From assembly GCA_048939765.1 (NCBI GenBank), contig JBHLPF010000001.1, positions 46,073 through 110,072 of the forward strand: DNA of 64,000 bases. Direction: 5' to 3'. Positions 13,905 to 34,538 of the stretch are shown in pieces (the first letter of the stretch is position 1; every line of letters starts with the position of its first letter). Origin of the DNA: Promethearchaeota archaeon. GTDB taxonomy: Archaea; Asgardarchaeota; Thorarchaeia; Thorarchaeales; Thorarchaeaceae. Made by a program: the position numbers and the translations under genes. The notes under the pieces were generated by a model. It was given only the letters and a program-made list of their open reading frames with translations, made no database searches and was not told the origin of the DNA.

Positions 13905-15989
13905 CTAGGTCCCAGAGGATCTAGAAAGTCGTATAGTACCTTCTCCTTTAGGCCTGTATACATCACCAGCTTGTTCGAGCCGTTTTATGACATCTTCGGC
14001 CTTGTCTCGAGGTATACCCTTTATCTCTAATCTCTGTAACAGCTCGACTTCGCTACTTACACCCTCATCCATCATAACTCTGAGTGTGTCTATAATCGCA
14101 ATTCTGATATTTCTCCTACCTGAAGGCTCCTCTGCATATATACGGTCTGCATCAAATTCTCCAGTATCAATGTCGTAGAACACCTTTTCCATTGATGCTT
14201 TCATAAGGTCGACAGCCGCTAACCCGTCCTCTCTGCTGACCTCACGCTTCAGTGCCATTCTTGCTCGAGCTTCTGCAAGACGTACTAGGGACTCCAGCTG
14301 TCGGGCTGTAATCGGTATGGGGGCATCTTCTTCTTGGGCCTTTTTTCGGAGACCTACATAGAAGTCCTGTATTGCTTCTGCGGCCGCGGGGGTCAGTTTA
14401 GGCTCAAACTCACGATGCGCAAATGCAATATACTTCTTCAAGAGCTTCTTCGGGATCGGAGCTTTCTCATCTTTTACCTTCCTCGATTTCCCCTGGTGCA
14501 AGTCTAGAATGAATCCTGCTAGGTCTTTATCGCGCTCCTCTTCTGGAGTGTCAATCATGACCCAGATTAAATCAAATCTGGACAAGATTGTAAAGGGTAG
14601 TTTGATGTTTTCTTGTGGAGTCCATGATATGTTGTATCGGCCAAGGGAAGGATTCGCCGCAGCTAGAATTGAGGTGCGTGCATTCAGTGTCGCAACTATG
14701 CCGGCCTTTGCTATGCTCACAGTATGTTGTTCCATTGCTTCGTGTATTGCTGTTCGATCATTCGGATCCATTTTGTCAAACTCATCTATGCATGCAATTC
14801 CCTTGTCTGCCAGAACCAATGCTCCAGCTTCAAGTGTCATAGCTCCACTGTCAGTGTCATGAACAACAGCTGCTGTCAGACCTGCAGCAGTGGTACCCTT
14901 TCCTGATGTGTATAGGGCTCTGGAGCCAAGATCTGCCACATATTTCAAGATCTGACTTTTTCCTGTCCCAGGATCACCGACCAGTAGAATGTTGGACCGT
15001 CCCCTTAGCCGAATTCCTTCTTCTTCGAATGTCTTTTCAACTCCACCGAATAGAAGAAGCGAGATTGATTCCTTTATGTCGTCATGCCCTTGGATTGCAG
15101 GTGCAATTGATCTGTAAATCTTCTCATGAACATATGGATTCTCAGACAGTTTGAGTATCTCTTCCCTATCTTCGGGAGAAATATCAAGCTCATATTCCTT
15201 CTCTGCAACTTCTACCCCACTGGCATCGATAAACACTCTAAAGGTGGCTAGCTTTCCACCCCTCCTCGAGAAGTCAGGTGCTGTCTGTAGCATTCCTGTC
15301 ACATTGACCATGTCACCAGGTCTCGAGATGTCTACGATGTCACCCTTGAGGACTGCATCGACGGACCGCGGCATTTGTCCTGGAGGAAGCTCCTCAGGTG
15401 ATTCCTGTATTCGAACCTTCTGCCAGTCTATGAACCGTGATTTTCCTTTCGCAAGTAACAATTTCATAGGGGTCTTTTTCCCACAGGTATTGCAAAACGG
15501 GGGTTCAGTGTAGCGACCTTCCTCTTGTTCTTGAGGAGTTTCGTCACCACAGATTCTGCATTTGAATGTGGCACTGACCAATAATGGCTTGACTTCACTT
15601 GCACGCATCATGATGCCCTTGATACGGATTAGCTTCCCGATGTGACGTGCCCGTATGTATCTAAGAGGAACAGTATCGGTATAGTTGATAATACGGACCT
15701 GTAATGCGTCATGTCCAATCGCCTCAACATACTTGGGATCTTCGATTTTGAGGATAGTAACCAGTGCATTGTGGGCATTCTTAAGAAATGACTCAGGATC
15801 TTCTGTAGCGTCTGCCGTGAATTCATTATCAAAGCTGATAAGATCTTCAAAGTCTATGACTAATGAAGTTTCACCGTCAACAGACATCTCTTGTACTCTA
15901 GACCAATAGATTGGTTTGCCATTTTCGTCTTTGAAGGTACGAATGAACTCCTCGAACCTTCTTTCTTCAGTTTCCATTTCTGTTGTCAT
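13905..15989 (-). CDS. mcm: Minichromosome maintenance helicase MCM
   Basis: 694 aa. C4 zinc finger (CRICGDE...CNTCGKK), Walker A GDPGTGKSQIL, Walker B DEFDKM and arginine-finger region. No intein is evident. Confidence 0.95.
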   Translation of the reverse strand: MTTEMETEERRFEEFIRTFKDENGKPIYWSRVQEMSVDGETSLVIDFEDLISFDNEFTADATEDPESFLKNAHNALVTILKIEDPKYVEAIGHDALQVRIINYTDTVPLRYIRARHIGKLIRIKGIMMRASEVKPLLVSATFKCRICGDETPQEQEEGRYTEPPFCNTCGKKTPMKLLLAKGKSRFIDWQKVRIQESPEELPPGQMPRSVDAVLKGDIVDISRPGDMVNVTGMLQTAPDFSRRGGKLATFRVFIDASGVEVAEKEYELDISPEDREEILKLSENPYVHEKIYRSIAPAIQGHDDIKESISLLLFGGVEKTFEEEGIRLRGRSNILLVGDPGTGKSQILKYVADLGSRALYTSGKGTTAAGLTAAVVHDTDSGAMTLEAGALVLADKGIACIDEFDKMDPNDRTAIHEAMEQHTVSIAKAGIVATLNARTSILAAANPSLGRYNISWTPQENIKLPFTILSRFDLIWVMIDTPEEERDKDLAGFILDLHQGKSRKVKDEKAPIPKKLLKKYIAFAHREFEPKLTPAAAEAIQDFYVGLRKKAQEEDAPIPITARQLESLVRLAEARARMALKREVSREDGLAAVDLMKASMEKVFYDIDTGEFDADRIYAEEPSGRRNIRIAIIDTLRVMMDEGVSSEVELLQRLEIKGIPRDKAEDVIKRLEQAGDVYRPKGEGTIRLSRSSGT

Positions 15990-21834: not shown

Positions 21835-22971
21835 ATGGCCGGTCGCGATTCAACAATCAACTTCTGGCAGGGGAATCAGGCATGCGCTGAAGCTGCAATT
21901 GCAGCAGGATGCCGGTTTTTCGCTGGCTATCCAATCACACCAGCTTCAGAGATAGCAGAAATCATGGCAGAGAATCTTCCAATTGTTGGAGGGACGTATC
22001 TCCAAATGGAGGACGAGATTGGTGCGATATCTGCGGTAATAGGTGCCTCATGGGGTGGCACTTTGTCAATGACAGCAACATCTGGCCCTGGCTTCAGTCT
22101 CATGCAGGAGAATATAGGATATGCAATTATGACTGAGACTCCTTGTGTCATTGTGGATGTCCAACGTGCAGGACCCAGTACTGGGCAGGCGACAAAAGGA
22201 GCACAAGGAGATTTCCAGCAATCAAGATGGGGTACACATGGTGATGTCGAGAGCATAGTATTATGTCCTAATTCTGCACAGGAAACATTCGAACTCACCT
22301 TGCGTGCCTTTCATCTCTCGGAGAAGCTTAGACATCCAGTGGTAATTCTTTCAGATGAAATTGTGGGACATTCTCGGGAGAAGGTTGTTGCGAACACCAA
22401 GGAGGACCTAAGGGTTCAGCGAAGGTATGCAGAGCCTGGAATTCCTCCATTTGATGGCTTCAATAAGGATGGTTGGATAGAGATGCCAAGGTTCGGCGAG
22501 GGACATAACCTACTAGTCACTGGATCAACACATGACAAATATGGCTATCGAAGGACCTCTGATCCCGAAGTACATGACAGACTGATTCGTCGAATCTCAG
22601 AGAAAATTCATAATGAACGTGCCTTTCTCACAGATGTGGTGGTTTCAGGTCAAGAGTCAGCTGAGTGGGGAATTATATCGTATGGGTGCACATCAAGATC
22701 GGTAGAGGAGTTGATTGCTAGAAGTTCAGGTGTCCCTCCTCTGAGATCACTACGATTGAGAACTGCATGGCCATTTCCAGATTCTGAGATAAGAGAGTTC
22801 GCCAAATCAGTTGATCGATTGCTGGTGCCCGAGCTTAGTCTAGGACAGCTCTTCAGAGAGGTTTCAAGAGTAGTTAGCGACTCTGTCGACATGGTTTCAC
22901 TAACTAAGATTGGCGGAGGATTGATGATTGAACCGGATGAAATCGTGGAAAGAATTAGGTCAGAGTCATAG
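21835..22971 (+). CDS. korA: 2-oxoacid:ferredoxin oxidoreductase alpha subunit (KorA/OorA family)
   Basis: 378 aa. N-terminal FAGYPITPASEI and the SGPGFSLMQE region are characteristic of COG0674 alpha subunits. No beta subunit gene is adjacent. Confidence 0.85.
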   Translation: MAGRDSTINFWQGNQACAEAAIAAGCRFFAGYPITPASEIAEIMAENLPIVGGTYLQMEDEIGAISAVIGASWGGTLSMTATSGPGFSLMQENIGYAIMTETPCVIVDVQRAGPSTGQATKGAQGDFQQSRWGTHGDVESIVLCPNSAQETFELTLRAFHLSEKLRHPVVILSDEIVGHSREKVVANTKEDLRVQRRYAEPGIPPFDGFNKDGWIEMPRFGEGHNLLVTGSTHDKYGYRRTSDPEVHDRLIRRISEKIHNERAFLTDVVVSGQESAEWGIISYGCTSRSVEELIARSSGVPPLRSLRLRTAWPFPDSEIREFAKSVDRLLVPELSLGQLFREVSRVVSDSVDMVSLTKIGGGLMIEPDEIVERIRSES

Positions 22972-24698
22972 TCTGTAGATGAGGGAGATGTTGGTCCAGG
23001 AGGATTGGGGTTCCCAATGATTATCACAATACTAGTTCTCATCCAGATGGCCACGGGTTGTGAGATATTTGCTTCTTCGCACCAAGGGCTGCTTATGTAA
23101 AAATGAAGAATGTGTAATCCGGGATAGATATTGAGTAGGAAGGGGACTTCTATTGATGATTTGACGTCTGCATTGTTGATTGTGAAAAAAGGTGTAAGCG
23201 CTGAATCAGCATAGATTCTCAAATCAATGAGCCCAACAATTTGACCGTTGTCATCTGTAGCATTGATATCTATCTGAGTAGTTTCCCCATAATAGACAAG
23301 ACCAAGCTCTACATCAACATCAATGACTCCATGAATATTGATTTCCAAGTCAATTGAATCCTGAACACTGTACGCGCTTTCAAGCATTTCAATGGACATT
23401 ATATGAGGGCCCAGTGATGTATTACTGCTGATAGGGAATGTTATCTCCGCTTGACTGTTTGCAGTGACTGATATGGTAGCATTGATTTCTCCAATTGAAT
23501 CAAAGATTTCTATTGGGATAAGCTGGTCTTGTAGTGATGTGGAATTAATGCTTACAGTCAAGGTGACGTTGTTTCCTCGCGCGGTAGACCAAGTAGCATT
23601 TGTGGTTGAAAGATAGACAACATAAGGTGTAACGTCAATTATGACCGATTCAGATTCGTTTCGATAGAGAGGATTAACTGCTGTAAGATTCACAGAATAG
23701 AAACCTGGTTCCACAGTGATCGGTATTGATGCACTGTAGAGTCCGTTGCCAAGTTTGTTCATCGTACCCGAAGAAAATGTCGTGGTCCACAGAATCGAAC
23801 TATCAGAAATCGGCTGACTGTCTTGTGTCTTCTGTTCTACCACTATGTCAGCTGATTCGGTTTGACTGCCATCTGGTGTTTGACAATGAATTGATGGCGG
23901 TGTAGACAAGATTGTCAGATTGGAAACGGCCCTTGTTACCACAAGTGGAAAAGAATTTGAGAAGGGAAGGAAGCTTTCCGTTCCATTGCCCGCTATCGTG
24001 ACTGTGTAATCTCCAGGCGGACCAGTAGTGTCAGTCCAGTTAATCCTTAGTTCTCCGTCTGAGGAAGTTGTCGTATCAATTTGCAGTATTGAATCAGATG
24101 TGGAATTGAGAAGTGTGACTGTCACAGGGCTGTTTCTATATGGAATGGATTGGTTGAGTGCACTTGCAACTTTGAAGTCTAGGGTGGAATTTGTGTTGAA
24201 TTCAATGTTCAACGGTGATAGTGGAAGAACATTAAGATGGCCCCTTGTTATATTCACAACAACAGTATCTCCCTCGCCCTGTGAGTAGGAATCATAGATC
24301 TCCACGTTGAAAATCACAAAGGCTTGAGCACCATTTACTCCTGGTGAGGTGTCTTCTGGGAGGATAGTGTAGGATGAGTTGAAATGTCTTACATCAGTTG
24401 AGGGTGGGACGTAATAGAGGTCTGAGAATGCAGGCCCTTGATCGGTCACTACCGCAAAGGACACGTAACACCACCCATCTCCACTGAAATCAGCAATTAG
24501 CTCAGCAACCATGTTCATTGTTTCGCCGACCTCATACACTAGCTTGTCAGTTTCGAAGTAGTGGAATTCGAAGTAGAACGCAGAAACAGGTGCGACAAGA
24601 CCGAATACAATACATGTGGAAACAATGACTGATGCTAGTGTCCTTTGGCTCAAGAAACCCACCAAAACCCGGTCAGTATGTTGCCTAAAAAACAGCAC
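22650..24698 (-). CDS. Secreted or cell-surface glycoprotein (signal peptide, Ig-like repeats, many N-glycosylation sequons)
   Basis: 682 aa. N-terminal hydrophobic signal/anchor (TLASVIVSTCIVFGLVAPVSA) and about 30 N-x-S/T sequons. The S/T/P-rich C-terminal tail is encoded antisense to the last 321 nt of korA. The true 3' end is therefore uncertain. Confidence 0.6.
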   Translation of the reverse strand: MLFFRQHTDRVLVGFLSQRTLASVIVSTCIVFGLVAPVSAFYFEFHYFETDKLVYEVGETMNMVAELIADFSGDGWCYVSFAVVTDQGPAFSDLYYVPPSTDVRHFNSSYTILPEDTSPGVNGAQAFVIFNVEIYDSYSQGEGDTVVVNITRGHLNVLPLSPLNIEFNTNSTLDFKVASALNQSIPYRNSPVTVTLLNSTSDSILQIDTTTSSDGELRINWTDTTGPPGDYTVTIAGNGTESFLPFSNSFPLVVTRAVSNLTILSTPPSIHCQTPDGSQTESADIVVEQKTQDSQPISDSSILWTTTFSSGTMNKLGNGLYSASIPITVEPGFYSVNLTAVNPLYRNESESVIIDVTPYVVYLSTTNATWSTARGNNVTLTVSINSTSLQDQLIPIEIFDSIGEINATISVTANSQAEITFPISSNTSLGPHIMSIEMLESAYSVQDSIDLEINIHGVIDVDVELGLVYYGETTQIDINATDDNGQIVGLIDLRIYADSALTPFFTINNADVKSSIEVPFLLNIYPGLHILHFYISSPWCEEANISQPVAIWMRTSIVIIIGNPNPPGPTSPSSTDYDSDLILSTISSGSIINPPPILVSETMSTESLTTLETSLKSCPRLSSGTSNRSTDLANSLISESGNGHAVLNRSDLRGGTPELLAINSSTDLDVHPYDIIPHSADS

Positions 24699-24766: not shown

Positions 24767-25132
24767 ATGGTAGTCAGGCTAAAGAATGCCACAGTTGACT
24801 CAATTGAAGACACTGAAACAAAGAGACTGAAAGTTGTCAGGATGATTGCCAAAGAGGAAGGAGCACGTATTTCATTGGAGCTTCCTGAAGCCCTGTCTGG
24901 TACAATAAAGCCAAGGGATGAAGTCACTGTTATATTTGATTCCAAACCAATCGCACGAGGAAACAATGCTAAGCTATATGCAGAAGGCAAAGTGTTTCGA
25001 ATAAGGAACGAGAATGGGATTGAGGTCACTGGCACCATAGGAGGGCTTAGAATGACTCTTGACCTCAGTAATCCTACAGCTGCTCAACGAAAGACATTTG
25101 ATCAAAAAAGATTCTTGATGGCTATAATCTGA
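24767..25132 (+). CDS. Probable RNA polymerase subunit Rpo8 (Rpb8-like, OB-fold)
   Basis: 121 aa. The C-terminal GTIGGLRMTL resembles the Rpb8 signature (...FGGLLMRL). It lies immediately upstream of tfb. The call is tentative. Confidence 0.35.
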   Translation: MVVRLKNATVDSIEDTETKRLKVVRMIAKEEGARISLELPEALSGTIKPRDEVTVIFDSKPIARGNNAKLYAEGKVFRIRNENGIEVTGTIGGLRMTLDLSNPTAAQRKTFDQKRFLMAII

Positions 25133-25311: not shown

Positions 25312-26349
25312 GTGTGGTCTTTGATTGATGAAACATTCGAGGCTATTCAAAACTCGTCTTGGTCTTGCCCCGACTGTTCCGGTCTGATAACGGCAAACCA
25401 GGGCTATATAGTATGTGTAGAATGCGGTCTAGTAATCTCTAGAGAATACGTGTCACCTACCTACCAGATGGGTGAAAAGGTATCTGACAGTGCACCTGAT
25501 GCAAGTGTATACGTATCTCTTGGCAATCGTATGCATATTGTTGACGGGTTGGGGAGCTATATTGGCTTCCATAAGGACAGATATTTCCAGGATGCACAAG
25601 GTCAGACTCTTACAGCACGATCGCAGAAGAAATTCAAGCGGCTTAAGATGATATACAGCACACGAATACGGATTGGCCGAAACGAGGCAAAGTATAGAGC
25701 CCTCAGAACTCTCAACCATGTTTCTAAGCTACTTATGCTAAATGAACAGGTCCGTGATCGTACTGCCTATCTATACAAGAAGATATCCTCTGAGTCTTCA
25801 GAAAAGATTAACAACAATATCCTGCTCATAGCTGTATGCCTTCTGATGGCTGTTAGAGAGTTCAAGGACGGAGCACCAATCACCTTGGATGAGATAGCCA
25901 ATACATTCGAGAAATGTGGTCATCGTGTTAACGTCAGGGCTATTGTTAGAGAGGCATTGAAACTCAAATCGCTGACAGGTGTTGCCCCCGAAATTCGTCG
26001 TCCAGATGACTATGTGCCAAGGGTCTTGTCCATGTTGATGAACAGTGAAAAGGTGCTCAGAAAAGTGATAGCTCGTGGATGGGAGCCAAAGAAGTATGAG
26101 AATGCTCTCAGAGATAAAATCCTTGAAGTTCTAGAAATGATACCGGCTTCAAAGAGAGGAGGAAGGAACCCCTTCATATTCACTGTTTCTGCTGCCTACG
26201 CAAGCGATCGTCTAGTTGCAGATGAGCATGGAAGGCGTTCTGTACTTACTCAGAAGCTTGCCTCAGAAGCGACTGAGGTGGCTGAGTACAGCATTCGGGA
26301 CCATTTCGGAATGATGAAGAAAGTGCTTGCAGTGGTTTCTCTAACCTAG
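25312..26349 (+). CDS. tfb: Transcription initiation factor IIB (TFB)
   Basis: 345 aa. N-terminal zinc ribbon CPDCSG...CVECG, B-finger/linker and two cyclin-fold repeats. Confidence 0.9.
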   Translation: MWSLIDETFEAIQNSSWSCPDCSGLITANQGYIVCVECGLVISREYVSPTYQMGEKVSDSAPDASVYVSLGNRMHIVDGLGSYIGFHKDRYFQDAQGQTLTARSQKKFKRLKMIYSTRIRIGRNEAKYRALRTLNHVSKLLMLNEQVRDRTAYLYKKISSESSEKINNNILLIAVCLLMAVREFKDGAPITLDEIANTFEKCGHRVNVRAIVREALKLKSLTGVAPEIRRPDDYVPRVLSMLMNSEKVLRKVIARGWEPKKYENALRDKILEVLEMIPASKRGGRNPFIFTVSAAYASDRLVADEHGRRSVLTQKLASEATEVAEYSIRDHFGMMKKVLAVVSLT

Positions 26350-26399: not shown

Positions 26400-28094
26400 A
26401 TGGAGGAAGATAGGCTGGAATTGATCAGATGTCCAGACACAAGATGCAAGGATTGCTCTGAGATGACCGCGTCAGAATGCACCAGAATCTCTATGCTATT
26501 CGAAGAAGGGAATAGAAAGAAGGTGCTAATTCTGGAAGATTCGAGAAGGCTTCTTCATCTGGGTGGACTGACTGATCCAATCCCAACAAGTCCTCCTTGG
26601 AGAGGTGATGGATGGGAATCGGTCTATATAGGTGATTGCGAGTTTCCAGACAGTGATTGGCTTCCAGTAGATGCCTACTTGGTAGGACCATATCTTTCAT
26701 TCTACTTCTCAAGAACAGGCGGAATGGAGATATTTCATCGGTCGTATCCACTAGTGAAGACTTCGATCGAGTATGGACTCATGCAGGAACTGAATGAGTC
26801 TATTGGCAGTAATCTCCAGGAATCAATAGGAAGGTCCGATGTTTCCACTCGGCTTTTGCAGGTTGCTGACAGTGTTTGTAAGAAGCTCCTGAAATCTTTG
26901 CCCGAGATAAGCACTGCGACACGAGAGAGAATTTCTACGATTGTGGCAAACAAAACGACTGTGCTAGATACATTCCTTCCAATTCTATTGGATGATGATG
27001 TTGAAGAAGTGTACGTGGATTGTCCAGGAAAGCCAATCTATTTTGATCATCGTAGGCTAGGAAGATGTATCTCAAAATATGAGATTCATCACGAAGATGT
27101 CCCTCGTCTTACCACACTGTTACGTGCAGAGAGCAATCTCCATCTTGATAGAAGAAATCCTTCCTTGAAGACTGATTTGAATCTCTTTGATACCAATCTG
27201 CGAGTATCTGCCAGCCTACCGCCGCTAAGCCCTGATGGATTGCACATGGAAATTCGGCGGGCGAGGAGGAATGCTTTCACCATTTTGGACCTAATTTGGA
27301 ATGGAACACTGCCTATTGAAGCGGCGGCAGCGCTTCTTCTGGCACTTGGGTGCAGATTCAACATAACGATAACCGGAGGTCCCGGGACCGGCAAGACTAC
27401 TCTATTGAATGCACTTGACGCGGATAGTCCAAAAACCTGGAGAAAAATCTACATAGAAGATGCAGTAGAAAGCAGAGATCTTCGCGGTCACAACCAAGTT
27501 CGTTTCAAAGTCGACCCAGTTGATGAAGTAGATGGGCATTTTGATAAATCGTTAGAAATCGTCAAGACCCTCCATAGGTCACCAGACTATCTTGTGCTTG
27601 GTGAGATTCAAACTGCAGAACATAGCCAAGCGCTTTTCCAAGCTATTGCAGCTGGTCTTCGTGCAATACAAACCTGTCATAGCTCCTCAGCAGCCAGTCT
27701 TGTGTCACGTTGGATCACTGGACATAATATCGACAAATCCAGTATCGCCATGATGGATTTGATTGTGACAATGGTACGACCAGTACCCGGAGAGTCGATT
27801 AGGAGAGTCAGTGAGATTGTTGAAGTGCAACGAGAGGTTTCAGAAGGTGTACTCAAATTCGTAGGACTCAGTACTGTCTACAATTGTAATTCATCCCAAG
27901 ATTTGCATTGGGCAACGGACGGCGCGTATCTTTCTTATGCACGGGCAGCTGGACATGAAAGCCACATCCAAGCATACGACAGAATAATTGATCACCTATC
28001 CAAGAGATTACGAACAGCAGACAGGAGCAATGGTCGAACATTGGGAAAAGATGTCTGGACTGAAGGACTGCCATTGTGGTTTGCACACATCTGA
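26400..28094 (+). CDS. FlaI/VirB11/GspE-family secretion ATPase with a Cys-rich N-terminal extension
   Basis: 564 aa. Walker A ITGGPGTGKTTLLNALD, Asp box/Walker B KIYIEDAVE and His box RSPDYLVLGEIQTAEH. The N-terminal roughly 100 aa contain CPDTRCKDC...C. No FlaJ/TadC-like polytopic partner is adjacent. Confidence 0.75.
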   Translation: MEEDRLELIRCPDTRCKDCSEMTASECTRISMLFEEGNRKKVLILEDSRRLLHLGGLTDPIPTSPPWRGDGWESVYIGDCEFPDSDWLPVDAYLVGPYLSFYFSRTGGMEIFHRSYPLVKTSIEYGLMQELNESIGSNLQESIGRSDVSTRLLQVADSVCKKLLKSLPEISTATRERISTIVANKTTVLDTFLPILLDDDVEEVYVDCPGKPIYFDHRRLGRCISKYEIHHEDVPRLTTLLRAESNLHLDRRNPSLKTDLNLFDTNLRVSASLPPLSPDGLHMEIRRARRNAFTILDLIWNGTLPIEAAAALLLALGCRFNITITGGPGTGKTTLLNALDADSPKTWRKIYIEDAVESRDLRGHNQVRFKVDPVDEVDGHFDKSLEIVKTLHRSPDYLVLGEIQTAEHSQALFQAIAAGLRAIQTCHSSSAASLVSRWITGHNIDKSSIAMMDLIVTMVRPVPGESIRRVSEIVEVQREVSEGVLKFVGLSTVYNCNSSQDLHWATDGAYLSYARAAGHESHIQAYDRIIDHLSKRLRTADRSNGRTLGKDVWTEGLPLWFAHI

Positions 28095-28118
28095 GGCTAT
28101 CTTGTTTCGTTTCTGTCT

Positions 28119-28364
28119 TTGAGGGTAGTTAAAATACCATTCCATGGACAGGTAATCAGGTGGAATTCTATGTACGACCCGATAAGGGATGAAAAGGGCG
28201 GTCCGCTGGTTGAGGAGAGTCTCCTGCTTGGTATTGCAGTAGTCACCGTATCGATAGTCATTGCTGTGATACTTCAGGCAACAGGTTGGGCACAAGACGT
28301 TGTGGCAGGACTCTTTCAGATTCTTGAAGACAGCTGGAGTAGCTTCACAAGTCTATTTCCATGA
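28119..28364 (+). CDS. Small membrane protein, possibly a type IV pilin-like (class III signal peptide) protein
   Basis: 81 aa. A charged segment (RDEKGG) is followed by a roughly 22-residue hydrophobic helix (LLLGIAVVTVSIVIAVIL), then a second hydrophobic stretch. Sits immediately downstream of the secretion ATPase. Confidence 0.35.
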   Translation: MRVVKIPFHGQVIRWNSMYDPIRDEKGGPLVEESLLLGIAVVTVSIVIAVILQATGWAQDVVAGLFQILEDSWSSFTSLFP

Positions 28365-28461: not shown

Positions 28462-28569
28462 GCTCCGGTAGATGATTCATGAAATCCATGATACAACCGT
28501 ATGTAGTCCGGCCCAGCATGAGGGACTCTCGATCCCTCGACCCGGGTTCGAATCCCGGCCGGAGCACCA
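28462..28569 (+). tRNA. tRNA-Glu (anticodon CUC) with a roughly 30-nt insertion near the D-arm 5' side (non-canonical intron position); CCA is encoded
   Basis: The 3' two-thirds is canonical: ...AGGGA-CTCTCGA-TCCCT-CGAC-CCGGG-TTCGAAT-CCCGG-CCGGAGC-A-CCA. The 5' acceptor GCTCCGG is at 28462. It is separated from the D-arm sequence (ATGTAGTCCGGCCCAGCAT) by GATGATTCATGAAATCCATGATACAACCGT. The exact splice boundaries are ambiguous. Confidence 0.6.
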
Positions 28570-28575
28570 ATTCTA

Positions 28576-30540
28576 CTATCTTCCTATTAGACGCCGCCGC
28601 CACAGAACTGGTATGCTAGCAAGCATGACTGATACACCAAGACTGATCAAAATGAAAGGAATTCCTACGCCTTGGGCAGCCATTGCTTCTGTGCTAGAAA
28701 TGATAAGGACATGGTAGCCAGTAGAAGATTGTGTGAACGCGGCTTCCTCTGTTTCATAATAGAGGTTATAGACGCCTGATTCCGTAGGAATGCGAAGAGC
28801 AATCTCAACGATACCCGAATCGTGACTCTTAGTAAGACTCCGTTGACCTAACCACTCATAGTGCAGATTCACATCTTCTAGAGGGGTGCCATTCAACGCT
28901 ATGATGGACAATTGAACTGTAATTTCTTGAAGAGATGGATAGACGGAGTAATTCACCATATTCACAGATACTGGAACGACTCTGCTGACAATGATTTCAT
29001 ATTCTAGGACTACGGGCAGTTCGTAGTTCAATGTGCTACCGTTATAGCCTATGACTAACAGATAGGGACCTTCTACTGAAGAAATGGGGAATTTCGCTTC
29101 GGTAACACCCTCACTATTGGTAGTAGAGGTGGTCACCAAGTGGTTTCCAATTTGCCAGGCAATTGATCGTTCTGGTATATAGATTCCACCGGCATTTAGC
29201 TGAATTTGGAATGTCACAACTTGAGAAGGGGATGCATAGCCCAGTATGCTTTGATAAATCATGATGATATTCGGCTGCGACCAGACTATCACTGGGATTA
29301 TTCTAGTCTTATTTATCAAGAATGAATGCGAAACTTCGAAGTGTAGATTTCTAGGCCCAAGGGGACCATGGAACGTAATGTGCGACATAGTTTTGATTTG
29401 TCCAAAGGAGAATGAAATCAAACGTGACTCGTTGGTGAGTTCATCGTACAATATTATAGTGGCATTGGGAATCGGTCTCATTAAGAGATCATAGAGTGTC
29501 ACTTGGACTTCACTTTCTACTCCTACTGAGATTGGATCTGGCAACTCAATGTAAATTGCTGCGGGGCTTATTACAGATATGTCAAATTCGATGTATGATG
29601 GTGCATAACGGAATGTCCCCGAATATTCTATCCTAATGCTGTGTATCCCAAGTATATACCGTGAATCAATATCCAGGCTGAACCTGGCAACACCATTCAT
29701 GTCGCTCACGATAGCATCTATTGGGTTTTCATCAAGAAACACAACAAGTGATGCGTCAGAGTGATTCTGACCCTCAGCTTGAATTGTCATCTGCACCCAG
29801 AATGAATCATTCAAATGAACGGTAGAGTTGTAGGAATCTTCTAGTTCAATAGATGTTGCTATTTGTTGAATGTTCACAGATATCAAACTCTGTGAACTGT
29901 TTAGAAATCGTGCCATATCCTGTTCGAAAACTATTCTCAACGTATTCTGTCCAGTTATGCACCATGTGCCATTGCAATCTATAATGAAAGTTGCATAGCC
30001 GCTGGCATTCGTTGGAGCAACTGCTAGGAGTGTGTCTTCACTATAAACAGCCATAGTGACCCCACTAATTGATGCATTATGGTCATCAGTGATTTTGGCA
30101 ATGAGAGCAGTTTCATCCTCTGGATGAATAGAGTTCTCGTCGACCTGAACCTCTATGACAGTCGCAGAAACCACAATGACAGAAGACCATTGGCAGGAAG
30201 AAGATAAGGAAAGCGAGGTGTTTCCCTCAAATGTTACGTTTAGCATGGATGGCCCTAAGGGATGATTAATCGAAACGTTCCAAGACACTGTTGCATAGCC
30301 ATTTGTGTCTGTCAAGGCAGACCCAATGAGGACGTCTTGGGTCTGATCGTAGAAGAAAAGACGCTGATTAGCAACCGGATTTCCGTAAGTGCCGTTTTGA
30401 AGGAGTCTTGCAGTAATAGGCAATGAATCTCCACGTACCACAACAGGGATTTCCTCTGCCGATGCTACATCTGCAGTCAAACTAGATACCAAGACCAGTG
30501 CCGCCGATATCATTACTATTCCTATGCAGACTCGCTTCAA
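28576..30540 (-). CDS. Cell-surface glycoprotein (N-terminal signal peptide, repeated beta-rich modules, C-terminal transmembrane anchor)
   Basis: 654 aa. Signal peptide MKRVCIGIVMISAALVLVSSLTADVASA and many N-x-S/T sequons. C-terminal TM helix GVGIPFILISLGVSVMLASIPVLW followed by RRRLIGR. Paralogous in architecture to 22650..24698. Confidence 0.7.
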   Translation of the reverse strand: MKRVCIGIVMISAALVLVSSLTADVASAEEIPVVVRGDSLPITARLLQNGTYGNPVANQRLFFYDQTQDVLIGSALTDTNGYATVSWNVSINHPLGPSMLNVTFEGNTSLSLSSSCQWSSVIVVSATVIEVQVDENSIHPEDETALIAKITDDHNASISGVTMAVYSEDTLLAVAPTNASGYATFIIDCNGTWCITGQNTLRIVFEQDMARFLNSSQSLISVNIQQIATSIELEDSYNSTVHLNDSFWVQMTIQAEGQNHSDASLVVFLDENPIDAIVSDMNGVARFSLDIDSRYILGIHSIRIEYSGTFRYAPSYIEFDISVISPAAIYIELPDPISVGVESEVQVTLYDLLMRPIPNATIILYDELTNESRLISFSFGQIKTMSHITFHGPLGPRNLHFEVSHSFLINKTRIIPVIVWSQPNIIMIYQSILGYASPSQVVTFQIQLNAGGIYIPERSIAWQIGNHLVTTSTTNSEGVTEAKFPISSVEGPYLLVIGYNGSTLNYELPVVLEYEIIVSRVVPVSVNMVNYSVYPSLQEITVQLSIIALNGTPLEDVNLHYEWLGQRSLTKSHDSGIVEIALRIPTESGVYNLYYETEEAAFTQSSTGYHVLIISSTEAMAAQGVGIPFILISLGVSVMLASIPVLWRRRLIGR

Positions 30541-30761: not shown

Positions 30762-33700
30762 GTGTCCAGCCATGAATTAAGCAAGGGAGACCGATTTAGA
30801 GTACCATCTAGGAAGGATCTTCCAGGGCTGTGGAAATGGATTGAGCTTGGATGGCTCACTAGCATTTCTATCTTGACTCTTTACTTCATAGTAGTCTACT
30901 TGCTCCCGTTACTGGGACTAATCACCCCAGTTTCAATCCCATCGAAACTGTTCATTGAAGTCATAATCTCCATAGGTCCGGTGTTGATGGGTGTGCTAGT
31001 GGCTCGCAGAAAGCTAGCCTTCGAGCAATCATTGACTGCAGTTTTGGATGATGATTTAGTGGCAATGAACATTGGAAACCATATTGTGGCAACATGCTGC
31101 CTTGATATCATGTCTGCACCCGGCTCAGTCCATATTTCTCGGAATGATCGACCGGAATACGCTACTGCTTTCCTTTTAGCACTTCGCGCAGGAATGAATG
31201 AGAAGGTCAGTATGGCATATGAGGTGGGTGTATGGAGAGGTGAGGCTTTTCTGCGGATTTTCATAACTGGAATAGGCAAGAGTAAGGAAGAGGTTGGGAA
31301 TATTCTTAGACATGAGGCGACTCGAGCAGAGGCTATTTTGATATCCTCCCTTAACAATGTGGAACTCCATCAGCTTAGAGGAGAAAGCCTCAGGGATGCG
31401 GTGTCAGGCATCCTATCTCTTGACTTGGAAGGTAACTCATCCAGAGAGCTGCATACCGTATTGTTGCTGATTAATGGAGAGCCGCGCGTCGCGCCCAGTC
31501 TGGAAAGCTCTCAGATTGGAACTTTCCTCTCTGTTTCACTTCGGCAAGGATACGATGTAAGTCTCACATGTGTCTTTTCGAAAGCTAAACCTGGTCGTGA
31601 ACAGAGAAAACTGGAAGGGCAATGGAAAACAATTCGGGAGAAAGAGAAACGGAACGAAGACTCCTTGGCAGACCATTCAGAGAAGAAGAAGCTGTTACGC
31701 GATTATGAGGAGATACAGGAGAATACTGGCTGGTTTGATTCCTCAGTTTCTCTTGCGGTAAGAACAGACGATTCTGAACATCTTTCAAGCATTCAGGAGG
31801 CGGTGTGCGGTGTTGTTCACTCCATATGGGGAGGAGATGGCAAAGTCAAGTTGAAACCTAAAGCTATAGGAAAGAATGTAGCTTACAGGCTTCTTCTTAG
31901 AAGACATATTACATCGCAAAGGACTCACGTGAGTAGATTGGCTGCTTTCTTGAATACACCGGTCCAGCAGTTGCCTGTCATTGCTGCATCCCCTGTGCCC
32001 GCCTTCACAATTCCATCAAGAAAGTTGGTGAACAACGAGTTCGTCATTGGAAAGGCTGTTTTTGGCGGACGGCGAATAAATGATGTCGGTTTGAAACCCG
32101 AATGGCTCCGGGAGCATGTAGCTGTACTTGGAGCAACAGGCACAGGAAAGACTACTCTTGTGAAACACCTTATTGCCGAACTAAGTAAGAAGTCGAGTGT
32201 TCCATGGTGGATCTTTGATGTGAAAGGATCTGAGTACCAAGAATTGGTGAACCTTTGTGACGATGATATCCTGGTATTGAAACCTGGAGTAGATCCATCG
32301 TTCGTAATTGATTTCATGGATCCAGAGACTGATTCTGGCGAGAGACATGCACACACTACGTTTGCAATATTGAAAGAACTCCTAAACGAGAGAGGTGTTT
32401 CTTCAGAACTCTCGCCTGCAATGGAAAAGCTTCTTCGTGAAGCGGTGTTAGAGGTTGCGCATGCATCAAGTAATGACAACTCGATTCAAGCATTGATTCG
32501 TGAGATATCAGATCTTGCAGGAAAGGATCGGACCGCTATCATGACGAGAGATGCACTCCTTAATCGTCTGGAGATTCTATCTAGAGAACCCCTCGGGACC
32601 ATTCTGAGTGGTGGTCGAAACGCAGTAAGGATCTCAAATCTTATGGATAAGAGGGTGATTCTTGATCTGCAGTATGTTGCTAGGACGGGTGGAATGGATG
32701 CGGCACGTTTGTTATACAATCTCATAGCTAAACGCATCTTTGACTATGCATTACACAGAGGGATAAAGCCAGGTCTTCATCATTTAGTAGTCCTCGAAGA
32801 AGCCAGCAATCTTGTACCTGAAAGCTATACGAGGCATACAGCTGCAGATGTCACCACAGGAGAGTCCATGGTTATGCTCCAGCGGGCAACAGGACAAGGT
32901 GTAGTTGTAATATCAACTCGACCGAATGTTTCTTCGAATATTCTGGCAAACACAGCCACGAAAATTGCCTTTCGACTTCCGTATGATAGTCCCATTGGTG
33001 CCAGATTCATGTCCCTTGATGATGAACAAGAACGGTATCTCAAGACACTGAAGCGTGGAAGAGCGCTGATTGTCTTGCCAGGGACAGAACCGTTCGAGAT
33101 AGCAACTCGACCATTTGAAATGGCCAGCATTCTTGAGAGACCGCCTTTGGAGCCAAGTATTCATGATGAAAGAGAGATTCCAGAGTCTAAAGATGCATCT
33201 ATAGAACATGATACAACAATTCAATCTGGAAGCTTTGACTCTTCTTCAAAGCCAATGGGAGCAGTGTATGACCGATTGGGAGAATTGGGGTCGCATATTG
33301 TTGCGTTTCTTGCCTCTCGGAATATGGCAACCCAAGCTGAAATGGAAGAGATTTTGACAGCAATCGATCCAAGAATGGAAAGTAGCGACATAAACGAGGT
33401 TATTCGTGACTTGGTTTCCTTGGGGACCATTGAGAGAGAAGCTTTACCAATTGTGCCAGGCGACTTCATTTTTACTTTGCCGGGAAGAGGACTTGATGCA
33501 GTAAGCATGATGATAACTGACTATATCATCGAGAAGCTTGGTTTGCATGATGTCACATGGGAACGAAATCTAGATGACAGGCCTGATATCGTTCTTGACG
33601 ACAGGGCGATATTGATACTTCCTCAACATCTCAAAGCATCATCAATGAAAACAACAGTGAACAAAATTCGGAATTATATGAATAATCTGGGTAATGATTT

Positions 33701-34538
33701 CATCGAATTGGTTGTTGTCGTCAGAGGGAGTGTTGCTGCAGCCAAGCTCAGAGAAACAATGAGTGAAACAAATGAGTTTGATGCAGTAAGCATAGTTTCA
33801 GCTTTTCCTAGTTCACTTGATGCAATGATTGAGAACCTAGCAATGGGAACCTCGACTAATGTAGGCTTGACAACTAGCGAGCATAAAACCCGGGCTGATG
33901 CTGGAGTGAATCTCATTGGCGCTATGCATGGTGTTGGAACAGCGACAAACCGTGCAATACAGATGCGACTGTGGTTTCAGTTGATACAAGATTTCGTGGA
34001 TTTGTCAAATGGTAGAACCGAATGGAATGTCTTGCTAGAGTTCATTGAAACAACTGCCCTTCAATCACTTAGGGGGAAAACCACTCCAATGAATATAGAA
34101 GAAGGAAAGCGTGCATTGACAGAGCTGCTAGCGGATGAAGTCCTGATGGCTTTGCGCGTTGGAAATGATCTTGATTTCATTGATTTGGAGGAGGGCCTTT
34201 GGATTGTGAACTCTGGTGAGCTAGGAAAACTCAAGGATTCAGCTGTAGATGCTCTTGAAAAGGAACTACGAAAACGGCAGAATTCGGTTTCCCGCGATCA
34301 TGGCTACTATGATCTCTGTACAAATGGTGTTTCTTACGTGGTCTTTCCGAATCAGCAACAGCTCAATACGCTGCTTCACCTTCAAAGTGATATTGCATGC
34401 AGGACTTGCAAGTCAAGACGAATTGTCTGTGTGCTGACTGCTGCTGAGTATCTTGAGGAAACAATGGTTATGCCGGACAACGTCCTACTCTATGACTTCT
34501 CGGAGTATGTTTCTGTAGCCAGTGCGGCAGGACAATAA
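30762..34538 (+). CDS. Large membrane-anchored P-loop ATPase of the HerA/FtsK/VirB4 superfamily (DUF87-like core) with an uncharacterised roughly 500-aa C-terminal region
   Basis: 1258 aa. Two N-terminal TM helices (residues about 30-80). Walker A VAVLGATGTGKTTLVKHL near residue 455 and Walker B HHLVVLEEASNLVP, as in HerA/VirB4-type hexameric ATPases. No recognisable domains in the first 430 or last 500 residues. Confidence 0.7.
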   Translation: MSSHELSKGDRFRVPSRKDLPGLWKWIELGWLTSISILTLYFIVVYLLPLLGLITPVSIPSKLFIEVIISIGPVLMGVLVARRKLAFEQSLTAVLDDDLVAMNIGNHIVATCCLDIMSAPGSVHISRNDRPEYATAFLLALRAGMNEKVSMAYEVGVWRGEAFLRIFITGIGKSKEEVGNILRHEATRAEAILISSLNNVELHQLRGESLRDAVSGILSLDLEGNSSRELHTVLLLINGEPRVAPSLESSQIGTFLSVSLRQGYDVSLTCVFSKAKPGREQRKLEGQWKTIREKEKRNEDSLADHSEKKKLLRDYEEIQENTGWFDSSVSLAVRTDDSEHLSSIQEAVCGVVHSIWGGDGKVKLKPKAIGKNVAYRLLLRRHITSQRTHVSRLAAFLNTPVQQLPVIAASPVPAFTIPSRKLVNNEFVIGKAVFGGRRINDVGLKPEWLREHVAVLGATGTGKTTLVKHLIAELSKKSSVPWWIFDVKGSEYQELVNLCDDDILVLKPGVDPSFVIDFMDPETDSGERHAHTTFAILKELLNERGVSSELSPAMEKLLREAVLEVAHASSNDNSIQALIREISDLAGKDRTAIMTRDALLNRLEILSREPLGTILSGGRNAVRISNLMDKRVILDLQYVARTGGMDAARLLYNLIAKRIFDYALHRGIKPGLHHLVVLEEASNLVPESYTRHTAADVTTGESMVMLQRATGQGVVVISTRPNVSSNILANTATKIAFRLPYDSPIGARFMSLDDEQERYLKTLKRGRALIVLPGTEPFEIATRPFEMASILERPPLEPSIHDEREIPESKDASIEHDTTIQSGSFDSSSKPMGAVYDRLGELGSHIVAFLASRNMATQAEMEEILTAIDPRMESSDINEVIRDLVSLGTIEREALPIVPGDFIFTLPGRGLDAVSMMITDYIIEKLGLHDVTWERNLDDRPDIVLDDRAILILPQHLKASSMKTTVNKIRNYMNNLGNDFIELVVVVRGSVAAAKLRETMSETNEFDAVSIVSAFPSSLDAMIENLAMGTSTNVGLTTSEHKTRADAGVNLIGAMHGVGTATNRAIQMRLWFQLIQDFVDLSNGRTEWNVLLEFIETTALQSLRGKTTPMNIEEGKRALTELLADEVLMALRVGNDLDFIDLEEGLWIVNSGELGKLKDSAVDALEKELRKRQNSVSRDHGYYDLCTNGVSYVVFPNQQQLNTLLHLQSDIACRTCKSRRIVCVLTAAEYLEETMVMPDNVLLYDFSEYVSVASAAGQ

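Follow-up and report, generated by a model that had tools for sequence, protein, structure and literature searches.

What does a type IV filament (TFF) ATPase do in an archaeal genome where no membrane platform protein stands beside it? This question is raised by a stretch of 64,000 nucleotides from a Promethearchaeota archaeon of the Thorarchaeales (assembly GCA_048939765.1, contig JBHLPF010000001.1, positions 46,073 to 110,072), which was analysed as a whole and is called the window here; all positions are counted within it. At 26400-28364, the original prediction had recognised a "solo" secretion ATPase of the FlaI/VirB11 family, followed by a small pilin-like membrane protein. The ATPase turned out not to be solitary: it is one gene of a conserved multi-gene module of the Thorarchaeota (the Thor lineage of Asgard archaea). 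With moderate confidence, we identify this module as a reduced, TFF-derived system similar to subsystem 4D of the Thermoproteales, having a mechanism based on the ATPase and the small protein, a dedicated TFB and a link to a CedD-like ATPase. The features concerned are given below with their lengths in amino acids (aa).

24767..25132, plus strand: rpo8 (Rpo8/RpoG/Rpb8 homologue), 121 aa, the first gene of the string, assigned by profile search.
25312..26349, plus strand: divergent TFB/TFIIB paralogue, 345 aa, GTG start, with a zinc ribbon (C19/C22/C35/C38) and two cyclin-like repeats.
26400..28094, plus strand: secretion/TFF ATPase of the archaeal GspE/FlaI/CpaF clade, 564 aa, assigned by Pfam, PDB, Foldseek and motifs.
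26400..26819, plus strand: lineage-specific N-terminal domain of the ATPase (aa 1-140), with a Cys4 motif as a putative metal-binding site.
28170..28364, plus strand: small prepilin-like membrane protein, 64 aa from the ATG at 28170 (the maximal open reading frame, 28119-28364, starts from the TTG at 28119 and has 81 aa).
30762..34538, plus strand: membrane-anchored HerA/CedD-like P-loop ATPase (DUF87), 1258 aa, with an N-terminal transmembrane (TM) hairpin, the DUF87 core and a C-terminal extension of ~480 aa.

The 564-aa protein matched the Pfam family T2SSE with an E-value of 1.7e-18, above the gathering score. The nearest PDB sequences were those of A. fulgidus GspE (2oap; 1.8e-23), CpaF (9e-19) and FlaI (3e-16). 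In the alignment of 29 family members, the Walker A motif (326-GGPGTGKTT-334), the Asp box (351-YIEDAVESR-359), the Walker B motif (393-RSPDYLVLGEIQT-405) and the His box (424-QTCHS-428) are all invariant. The complete GspE/FlaI/VirB11 motif set that had been predicted for this product is present; the segment RSPDYLVLGEI, which had been taken for the His box, is in fact the Walker B motif. Since the four catalytic motifs are invariant, the ATPase should be catalytically competent.

The assignment to a particular branch of the superfamily was approached with equivalog models of NCBIfam. The best match was the TadA-family model, at 98 bits against a cutoff of 373. The scores for FlaI (NF058587; 74 vs 550), TrbB (67 vs 305), VirB11 (60 vs 250) and BasE (47 vs 1000) were also far below the cutoffs, and the E-value of 1e-20 for the FlaI model means generic similarity only. 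An AlphaFold2 model was built from the 29 family members (pLDDT 78, pTM 0.74). By Foldseek, this model aligned with 2oap over ~480 columns (E 8e-30), and FlaI (4ii7, 4ihq) and CpaF structures were also aligned. These comparisons support a secretion ATPase of the GspE/FlaI/CpaF clade that would be distinct from FlaI, BasE, VirB11 and TadA. The search retrieved more than 700 homologues, essentially all of them thorarchaeal. Among the best 120, sequence identity is 48-100% and the length ~565 aa, and nearly all of the named ones come from Thorarchaeota or "Promethearchaeota" metagenome-assembled genomes (MAGs). Beyond the Thorarchaeota, the nearest relatives are ATPases linked to Rpo8 and TFB in TACK archaea, with ~40% identity and 236-281 bits, compared with 62 bits for FlaI. 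The domain PF27713 (UCP018868) was considered as a diagnostic mark of the family and was dropped, since bacterial CpaF carries it too.

The Cys-rich N-terminal extension noticed earlier is a real property of the family. The motif C11-x4-C16-x2-C19-x7-C27 is near-invariant, alongside invariant H53, W67 and W72, and the most distant members have the spacing C-x4-C-x2-C-x8-C. Alignment offsets relative to FlaI and A. fulgidus GspE give an extension of ~60 aa, instead of the ~100 aa first estimated. A phmmer search of aa 1-190 against 1.84 billion representative proteins retrieved 11 clusters, nearly all of which are family members or fragments. In a dedicated model of aa 1-140 (pLDDT 85), the region is predicted to form one compact, β-rich domain, in which the segment linking strand 1 to the first helix contains the Cys motif. 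Foldseek against solved structures gave no significant match for this domain (best E 0.13, TM-score at most 0.28), and no zinc-ribbon protein was among the matches. The classical zinc ribbon that had been suggested for the extension is therefore unsupported by the dedicated model and the structure search. It is still a reasonable inference from the sequence that the four Cys residues bind Zn or an Fe-S cluster.

The two genes preceding the ATPase belong to the transcription machinery. A profile of 18 Rpo8 orthologues matched S. pombe Rpb8 (E 4.8e-6) and archaeal Rpo8 chains (2.4e-5 to 7e-5) over nearly the full length; the single sequence from the window matched Pfam RNA_pol_RpbG weakly, and the TACK counterparts matched PF16992. 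The TFB-like protein matched Pfam TFIIB (E 4.6e-5) and the TFIIB zinc ribbon. Its profile reached human TFIIB across both cyclin repeats (E 3.8e-10) and P. woesei TFB (E 9e-8). On the canonical archaeal TFB model (PRK00423), it scored 57 bits against a cutoff of 384. Because of this low score and the modest match to human TFIIB, the protein is best described as a highly divergent TFB paralogue. The ATPase does lie directly after tfb and rpo8, as stated in the original prediction, and the identities of both were verified by profile searches against PDB sequences. All three genes are encoded in the same direction and are separated by 180 and 50 bp.

For comparison across genomes, loci were taken from one genome per GTDB species. 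Of these, 80 were kept, 77 from the Thor lineage and 3 from TACK archaea; in the latter 3, the ATPase is ~40% identical and lacks the N-terminal region. The TFB-like gene lies immediately 5' of the ATPase at 80 of 81 informative Thor loci, and the small gene immediately 3' at 77 of 79. The rpo8 gene was found at 73 of 84 loci. Conservation of the tfb-ATPase neighbourhood across genomes, which had been proposed as a check, is borne out by the position of the TFB-like gene. The rpo8 gene, the TFB paralogue, the ATPase and the ~65-aa protein form a conserved, class-wide Thor module. The order of the genes is collinear throughout the class: cdc6 (minus), POR (plus), a large secreted protein (minus), the 121-aa protein (plus), the TFB-like gene (plus) and the ATPase (plus), followed by the small gene (plus), an Ig-repeat protein (minus), a 1250-aa DUF87 ATPase (plus), IPK (minus), S10 (plus) and GlmS (plus). 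At the independently rearranged loci L001/L002, L043, L065, L066 and L074, the genes of the module all stay within 12-18 kb. In the Thorarchaeota genome CP070658.1, the locus is found at ~1.814-1.836 Mb. Best-segment identity across Thor is ~75% for the TFB-like and small proteins, ~54% for DUF87, ~50% for the ATPase and 30-45% for the two surface proteins. The TFB paralogue, at ~75%, is more conserved within Thor than the ATPase.

The small gene following the ATPase required a correction of its start. The 81-aa reading frame of the original prediction exists; however, among the 77 Thor loci at which the gene was found, conservation begins at an internal Met at nucleotide 28170, and gene callers give 66-69 aa for the relatives. 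Because of this, the true start is most likely the ATG at 28170, with a product of 64 aa. The median pS is 0.78, with synonymous sites saturated, compared with a pN of 0.09, and dN/dS is ~0.05 among unsaturated pairs. Strong purifying selection thus marks the small frame as a real gene. All of the 409 family members are annotated as hypothetical, and none has a Pfam domain.

In the window, the protein consists of a leader, MYDPIRDEKG, and the putative mature part GPLVEESLLLGIAVVTVSIVIAVILQATGWAQ...DSW...LFP. Across the 77 Thor loci, a short variable leader is followed by the near-invariant sequence GPLVEESLLLG[LI]AVVT[VI]SIVIAVILQATGWAQ...DSW...L. The junction in the 76 distinct sequences is [DN]-E-x-[GA]/G-P-L-V-E-E-S, where the slash marks the predicted cleavage point; the residue at -1 is Gly in 65 and Ala in 11. 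If cleavage takes place there, invariant Glu residues come to positions +5 and +6. The mature part, of ~54 aa, is without Lys or Arg in 73 of the 76 sequences. It has a single TM helix: one hydrophobic helix is accompanied by one amphipathic helix. For the class III signal that had been proposed for this protein, the evidence is mixed. The residue at -1, the invariant Glu at +5 and the basic leaders of TACK homologues speak for it; the acidic Thor leaders, the variable -2 residue and the lack of a pilin Pfam match do not. The Flp_Fap and Class_IIIsignal models also gave no match to the protein, and the leader would probably fail the FlaFind pattern. As the whole mature peptide hardly varies, most of its residues may be buried in contacts.

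The ancestry of the module is recorded in the TACK archaea. Their Rpo8/TFB-linked loci contain the closest relatives of the Thor ATPase (~40% identity over the catalytic domains), TFB, small protein and DUF87, in the same order. The gene content of individual loci is as follows.

L089: LSM, Rpo8 (130 aa), TFB-like (329), ATPase (689), proteins of 279 and 283 aa, small protein (81).
L088, Nezhaarchaeales: Rpo8, 327-aa protein, two small reading frames, ATPase (710), proteins of 246 and 281 aa, small protein (83), DUF87 (583), XPD-like helicase.
L083, Thermoprotei MAG: Rpo8-like, TFB-like, pilin-like genes on the opposite strand, ATPase (692), then two TadC-like proteins, small protein (83; RA/SPLVEEGMLIG), DUF87 (638).
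L085, Thermoprotei MAG: TFB-like, ATPase (621), 407-aa protein with 6-8 TM segments, then pilin-like genes (KKG/FLVAIATLL...) and small protein (92; RRKKG/SQMIEEGLLLGLSL).
L087: TFB-like (291), ATPase (592), 366-aa protein with 7 TM segments.
L082, L084 and L090 (L082-type: Nezhaarchaeales): the same core, with the Rpo8/TFB pair within ~4 kb.

All of these loci (L082-L085 and L087-L090) have either one fused or two separate FlaJ/TadC-like platform genes, and a separate pair lies between the ATPase and the small gene. In L088, the 246-aa polytopic protein matched ArlJ/FlaJ (E 3.4e-5) and, faintly, T2SSF. The TACK small proteins carry basic leaders of class III type (RG/S, KKG/S); they can be aligned with the Thor proteins, with which they share an invariant Glu-Glu pair, a Leu and a Gly. 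The TACK TFB-like orthologues are 31-35% identical to the Thor paralogue (E 1e-31 to 1e-36) and are equally remote from canonical TFB (0-54 bits). A distinct, very divergent family of ATPase-linked TFB paralogues is thus common to the Thorarchaeota and several TACK lineages (L082:4626-5621, minus strand; L083:5526-6446, plus; L087:3994-4869, plus). The TACK loci differ from those of Thor in that they keep the platform proteins, have ATPases of 590-720 aa with longer N-termini, encode small proteins with basic leaders, and contain extra pilin-like genes at some loci; in addition, their DUF87 is half the Thor size and much closer to CedD.

By this comparison, the Thor string is the TACK string minus the platform genes and plus an enlarged, more divergent CedD-like ATPase. 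Because the TACK relatives hold the same string with FlaJ/TadC-like genes between the ATPase and the small gene, the Thor module is a reduced derivative of a platform-containing TFF locus, and its state without a platform a derived loss. The ancestry of the module among the TFF filaments is further indicated by the occurrence of the TACK homologues in complete TFF operons, by the class-wide string and by the conserved [GA]/GPLVEE junction. The neighbouring tfb and rpo8 had been treated as incidental but are what characterises this system; the linkage of Rpo8, the TFB paralogue and the ATPase recurs in TACK and has been published for subsystem 4D. Because it recurs in distant TACK lineages with other neighbourhoods, this linkage is not a frozen synteny of one lineage.

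The large ATPase encoded downstream had been left unconnected to the module. A DUF87 gene is found within ~10 kb at 72 of 84 loci, and the protein is a probable partner of the module. The Thor protein matched Pfam DUF87 (E 8.7e-15) and, more weakly, the NCBIfam models of CedD (E 2.2e-11; 43 bits, cutoff 600) and CedB (15 bits, cutoff 700). Its profile found Sulfolobus HerA among PDB sequences (E 1.8e-13); a single-sequence search of the PDB gave no match, so that the profile was needed. It is homologous to the 638-aa DUF87 of L083 (E ~1e-20), which scored 254 bits on the CedD model (E 2.9e-75) across the whole ATPase region, a similarity at the family level only; the DUF87 of L088 scored 83 bits. 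CedD is a membrane ATPase of the HerA clade that is essential for DNA import (PMC11868833). At L088, an XPD-like (DEAD_2) helicase gene (14074-15864) lies directly 3' of the CedD-like DUF87 and is a further hint of a DNA-related role. The C-terminal extension of the Thor protein (33129-34538, aa ~790-1258) is conserved in Thor and absent from the 583-638-aa TACK relatives. It contains near-invariant C1186, C1213 and C1216, and by eye, parts of it resemble winged-helix segments; Pfam scans of the N-terminal region and of this extension gave no match. A defence-system reading of the protein was rejected, as PADLOC gave only generic HerA/mad8 P-loop matches.

No platform was found on the Thor side. 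In a hydropathy scan of all reading frames of the window, none had at least 5 TM segments, and no FlaJ/TadC-like or peptidase-like polytopic protein was seen. The same scan revealed no CedA- or VirB6-like polytopic frames, and archaellin and FlaF/G/H/J genes are absent from the window. Hidden Markov models (HMMs) of TadC derived from the TACK proteins detected the fused platform of L085 as a positive control (E 3e-7); applied to 1.6 Mb of Thor DNA, consisting of 83 loci and the window, they found nothing (best E 0.056). The original prediction had reported no platform of FlaJ/TadC/UpsF type, peptidase or archaellum genes nearby, and the hydropathy scan and the TadC profile search of the window agree with this. 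That the locus is not a recognisable archaellum, Aap, Ups or Ced locus also holds, as the equivalog scores are far below the cutoffs and the partner genes are not in the window.

Among the known systems, subsystem 4D of the Thermoproteales is the most similar by description. It was called "the most unusual" (Makarova, Koonin & Albers 2016, PMC4858521): the ATPase (arCOG05558) has an extra small N-terminal Cys domain, and the predicted operon contains a 4-5-TM protein (arCOG05557 or arCOG13890), a TFIIB homologue (arCOG05559) and RPB8, without pilins. It was described for Pyrobaculum/Thermoproteus and regarded as possibly repurposed (PMC4858521), and it was later called "a remnant ... with a repurposed function" (Sivabalasarma & Albers 2026 preprint). 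The Thor module shares with it the Cys-bearing N-terminal ATPase domain and the TFIIB-family paralogue with RPB8/Rpo8 in a predicted operon. Both are without annotated canonical pilins, uncharacterised, and suspected to be distinct from ordinary pili. On the other hand, the Thor module is from Asgard archaea, has the ~65-aa prepilin-like gene and has no 4-5-TM/TadC-like partner; this membrane partner was found neither at the Thor loci nor in the window and is present in the TACK relatives. The Thor TFB aligns over two cyclin repeats, whereas arCOG05559 is said to have one; the Thor ATPase keeps the C-terminal region and is associated with the large HerA/CedD-like ATPase. Small reading frames may have been overlooked in subsystem 4D when it was called pilin-less.

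The Ups/Ced/TFB3 components of Sulfolobales offer a functional analogy: an ATPase of type IV pilus type, pilin(s), HerA-clade membrane ATPases (CedB/CedD) and, as their dedicated TFB paralogue, TFB3, by which the ups pilus operon and the ced genes are switched on (PMC6101594). These components are scattered over the genome in Sulfolobales and clustered in Thor; TFB3 is truncated to a zinc ribbon and a coiled coil, whereas the Thor paralogue is full length; and the UpsF platform and CedA/A1/A2 have no counterparts in the Thor module. The Tad/Flp and archaeal Epd pili resemble the module in that TadA is the best-matching ATPase family, and the small protein is Flp-like in its size, single N-terminal helix, Gly at -1 and Glu at +5. 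They differ in having TadB/TadC and in lacking the acidic leader, and the TadA score is only about a quarter of the cutoff. No description of the Thor module, of the small-protein family or of the CedD-like association was found in the literature, and no name for the Rpo8/TFB-linked TFF loci of the Nezhaarchaeales and Thermoprotei MAGs was found in the searchable part of it.

From these features, a mechanism can be proposed. The ATPase, as expected from its family, would work as a hexamer at the cytoplasmic side of the membrane. Its substrate would be the small single-TM protein, in view of the conserved adjacency, the pilin-like junction and the homology to proteins of complete TFF operons. 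The small protein might be extracted and assembled into a short Flp-like fibre or a pseudopilus, or it might be held in a stable membrane complex with the ATPase. The TFB paralogue might serve as the dedicated initiation factor of the module; its co-orientation, the short spacers and the precedent of Sulfolobus TFB3 point in this direction. The weakest step is that the CedD-like ATPase could connect the device with the translocation of a macromolecule, DNA or another, by analogy with Ups and Ced under TFB3. The platform function in Thorarchaeota would be either supplied from elsewhere in the genome or dispensed with. That the mature peptide is near-invariant and the basic leader has been lost speaks for some change of function in Thor.

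Several observations weigh against this identification. To our knowledge, no TFF machine assembles pilins without a platform protein. Since this is so, either a platform gene lies elsewhere in the genome, or the Thor module may function in a way unlike that of any known pilus machine; the TadC models found nothing in the 1.6 Mb of Thor DNA, and the window contains no polytopic candidate for a prepilin peptidase. The small protein gave no match to the Pfam pilin families even at E<=10, most of its Thor leaders are net acidic and their residue at -2 varies, Gly-Pro at +1/+2 is atypical for a class III signal, and near-invariance of the mature part is unusual for an exposed fibre subunit. Thor synteny spans housekeeping genes (cdc6, POR, IPK, S10 and GlmS) as well; because these share the same collinearity, adjacency alone is weak evidence. 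The association with CedD is loosened by the low CedD score of the Thor DUF87 and by the absence of DUF87 from the TACK loci L082, L084, L089 and L090. Finally, the module was matched to subsystem 4D by described features, and a search with the Nezhaarchaeales ATPase as a query retrieved no arCOG05558 protein of Pyrobaculum/Thermoproteus.

On either side of the module lies a fast-evolving surface protein with Ig/MG2 repeats; both are 30-45% identical within the class, and their link to the module is uncertain.

22650..24698, minus strand: large secreted repeat protein, 682 aa, Sec signal peptide ...PVSA/FYFEF, fast-evolving.
28576..30540, minus strand: Ig-repeat surface protein, 654 aa, Pfam Big_3_5 and Big_1, Sec signal peptide ...DVASA/EE, C-terminal TM anchor.

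The 654-aa protein is syntenic in 76 loci, is only ~35% identical and evolves fast; with its C-terminal TM anchor, it looks S-layer-like. Ig-fold S-layer-like proteins have been reported beside archaellum loci (Sivabalasarma & Albers 2026 preprint). The idea that the flanking Ig-repeat proteins are class III pilin-like adhesins was rejected, as they have Sec/SPase-I signals instead. On the other side, the 3' end of the 682-aa frame overlaps that of a pyruvate/2-oxoacid:ferredoxin oxidoreductase-like gene (21835-22971, plus strand) by ~320 nt (22650-22971); the overlapping tail is of low complexity and may be a spurious extension. A gene for tRNA-Glu(CUC) lies 3' of the small gene (28471-28570, plus strand). 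It was missed by ARAGORN and was found by an Rfam match at 28501-28558 (31.6 bits, E 7e-5). The anticodon loop is CU-CUC-GA, and the 5' acceptor strand GCTCCGG (~28471) pairs with CCGGAGC before an encoded ACCA. The ~24 nt between the acceptor strand and the D-arm suggest a non-canonical intron near positions 8-10. In one Thor genome (L001:16808-19266), two eukaryotic-signature genes are found 5-8 kb 3' of the module, one for a Roadblock/LC7-domain protein and one for a small GTPase of the Arf/Ras type; the edge of this locus carries a NurA gene.

How do other explanations fare against the same data? The module might belong to an ordinary adhesive type IV pilus of the Flp/Epd kind, with the platform and the peptidase encoded elsewhere and the TFB, Rpo8 and HerA neighbours kept by inherited synteny. 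The proximity of the ATPase to the TadA/CpaF/GspE2 models, the Flp-like size of the small protein with its Glu at +5, the housekeeping genes within the region-wide synteny and the flanking Ig-repeat proteins all fit such a pilus, and ATPase/TadC sets are able to work with pilins encoded at other loci (Makarova 2016, PMC4858521). However, the linkage of Rpo8, TFB and ATPase recurs in distant TACK lineages with different neighbourhoods, a near-invariant mature peptide is atypical of adhesive pilins, and the flanking surface proteins bear Sec rather than class III signals. Moreover, TFF systems were found to be widespread "except the Asgardarchaeota" (Sivabalasarma & Albers 2026 preprint). The detection models of that census demand an ATPase, a platform and a peptidase, so that a platform-less Thor locus would escape it. 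We regard an ordinary pilus as unlikely.

Another view is that the locus is a repurposed remnant without any filament: through its Cys4 domain, the ATPase would cooperate with TFB and Rpo8 in signalling or in a pathway related to transcription, with the small TM protein as a membrane anchor or sensor. This would account for an operon linkage of rpo8, TFB paralogue and ATPase that extends across TACK and Thor, for the lineage-specific N-terminal domain without a fold match, for the loss of basic class III character from the Thor leaders and for a Thor module that has lost its platform genes while ATPase and small protein are still under selection. Repurposing was suggested for subsystem 4D both in the 2016 paper and in the 2026 preprint. 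Against it, the TACK members keep platforms, pilin-like genes (L083 and L085) and basic leaders, which points to a working filament machine as the ancestor, and the Glu residues at +5 and +6 and the Gly or Ala at -1 are still invariant in Thor. Moreover, TFF ATPases are not known to act on the transcription machinery. A repurposed remnant is, in our estimation, rather improbable.

A DNA transfer apparatus of the type IV secretion (conjugation) or Ced/Ted kind would make the ATPase an analogue of VirB11, the DUF87 protein an analogue of VirB4 and the small protein a conjugative pilin of VirB2/CedA1 type. The CedD-like partner and the weaker VirB4 and TraC matches of the L083 DUF87 would suit it, and VirB11-type ATPases are known to work without a GspF-type platform. 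The ATPase is nevertheless much nearer to GspE2/FlaI/CpaF than to VirB11, for which it reached less than a quarter of the cutoff; the TACK relatives have FlaJ-like platforms; and the DUF87 profile matched HerA, not VirB4, among PDB sequences. VirB2-type pilins are two-helix hairpins, unlike the hydrophobic and amphipathic helices of the small protein, and no CedA- or VirB6-like polytopic protein is encoded in the window. Such an apparatus is very improbable. That the ATPase is the canonical FlaI of an archaellum whose other genes lie elsewhere, as its generic similarity to the FlaI model and structures might suggest, is scarcely credible and was refuted at the level tested, given the score far under the FlaI cutoff, the closer TACK ATPases and the lack of archaellin and FlaF/G/H/J genes in the window.

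The reduced 4D-like module identified here is new in three respects: it extends across an Asgard class, it contains an unannotated, near-invariant prepilin-like protein, and its platform genes have been lost from the locus. Subsystem 4D was singled out in 2016 and again in 2026 as the oddest archaeal TFF system, and was thought to be restricted to Pyrobaculum/Thermoproteus, pilin-less and possibly transcription-related. The linkage of Rpo8, a TFB paralogue and a Cys-rich ATPase extends through the whole of an Asgard class and to several further lineages of TACK archaea; this speaks for an ancient functional connection and against chance synteny. A further-reaching reading, which we offer as conjecture and think unlikely as a whole, is that an ATPase and a prepilin-like partner were coupled to TFB/Rpo8 before the TACK/Asgard split, and that the Thor descendant is a platform-free device which would link envelope functions or DNA uptake to transcription initiation instead of making a pilus. 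The conserved prepilin-like protein and the frequent CedD-like DNA translocase homologue provide concrete, testable hypotheses. The Thorarchaeota represent a natural platform-deletion variant, and a TFF-derived module is added to the closest prokaryotic relatives of eukaryotes, where TFF systems had been reported to be largely absent. If the further-reaching reading is true, the platform-free ATPase/prepilin device would be a new functional class of TFF-derived machine.

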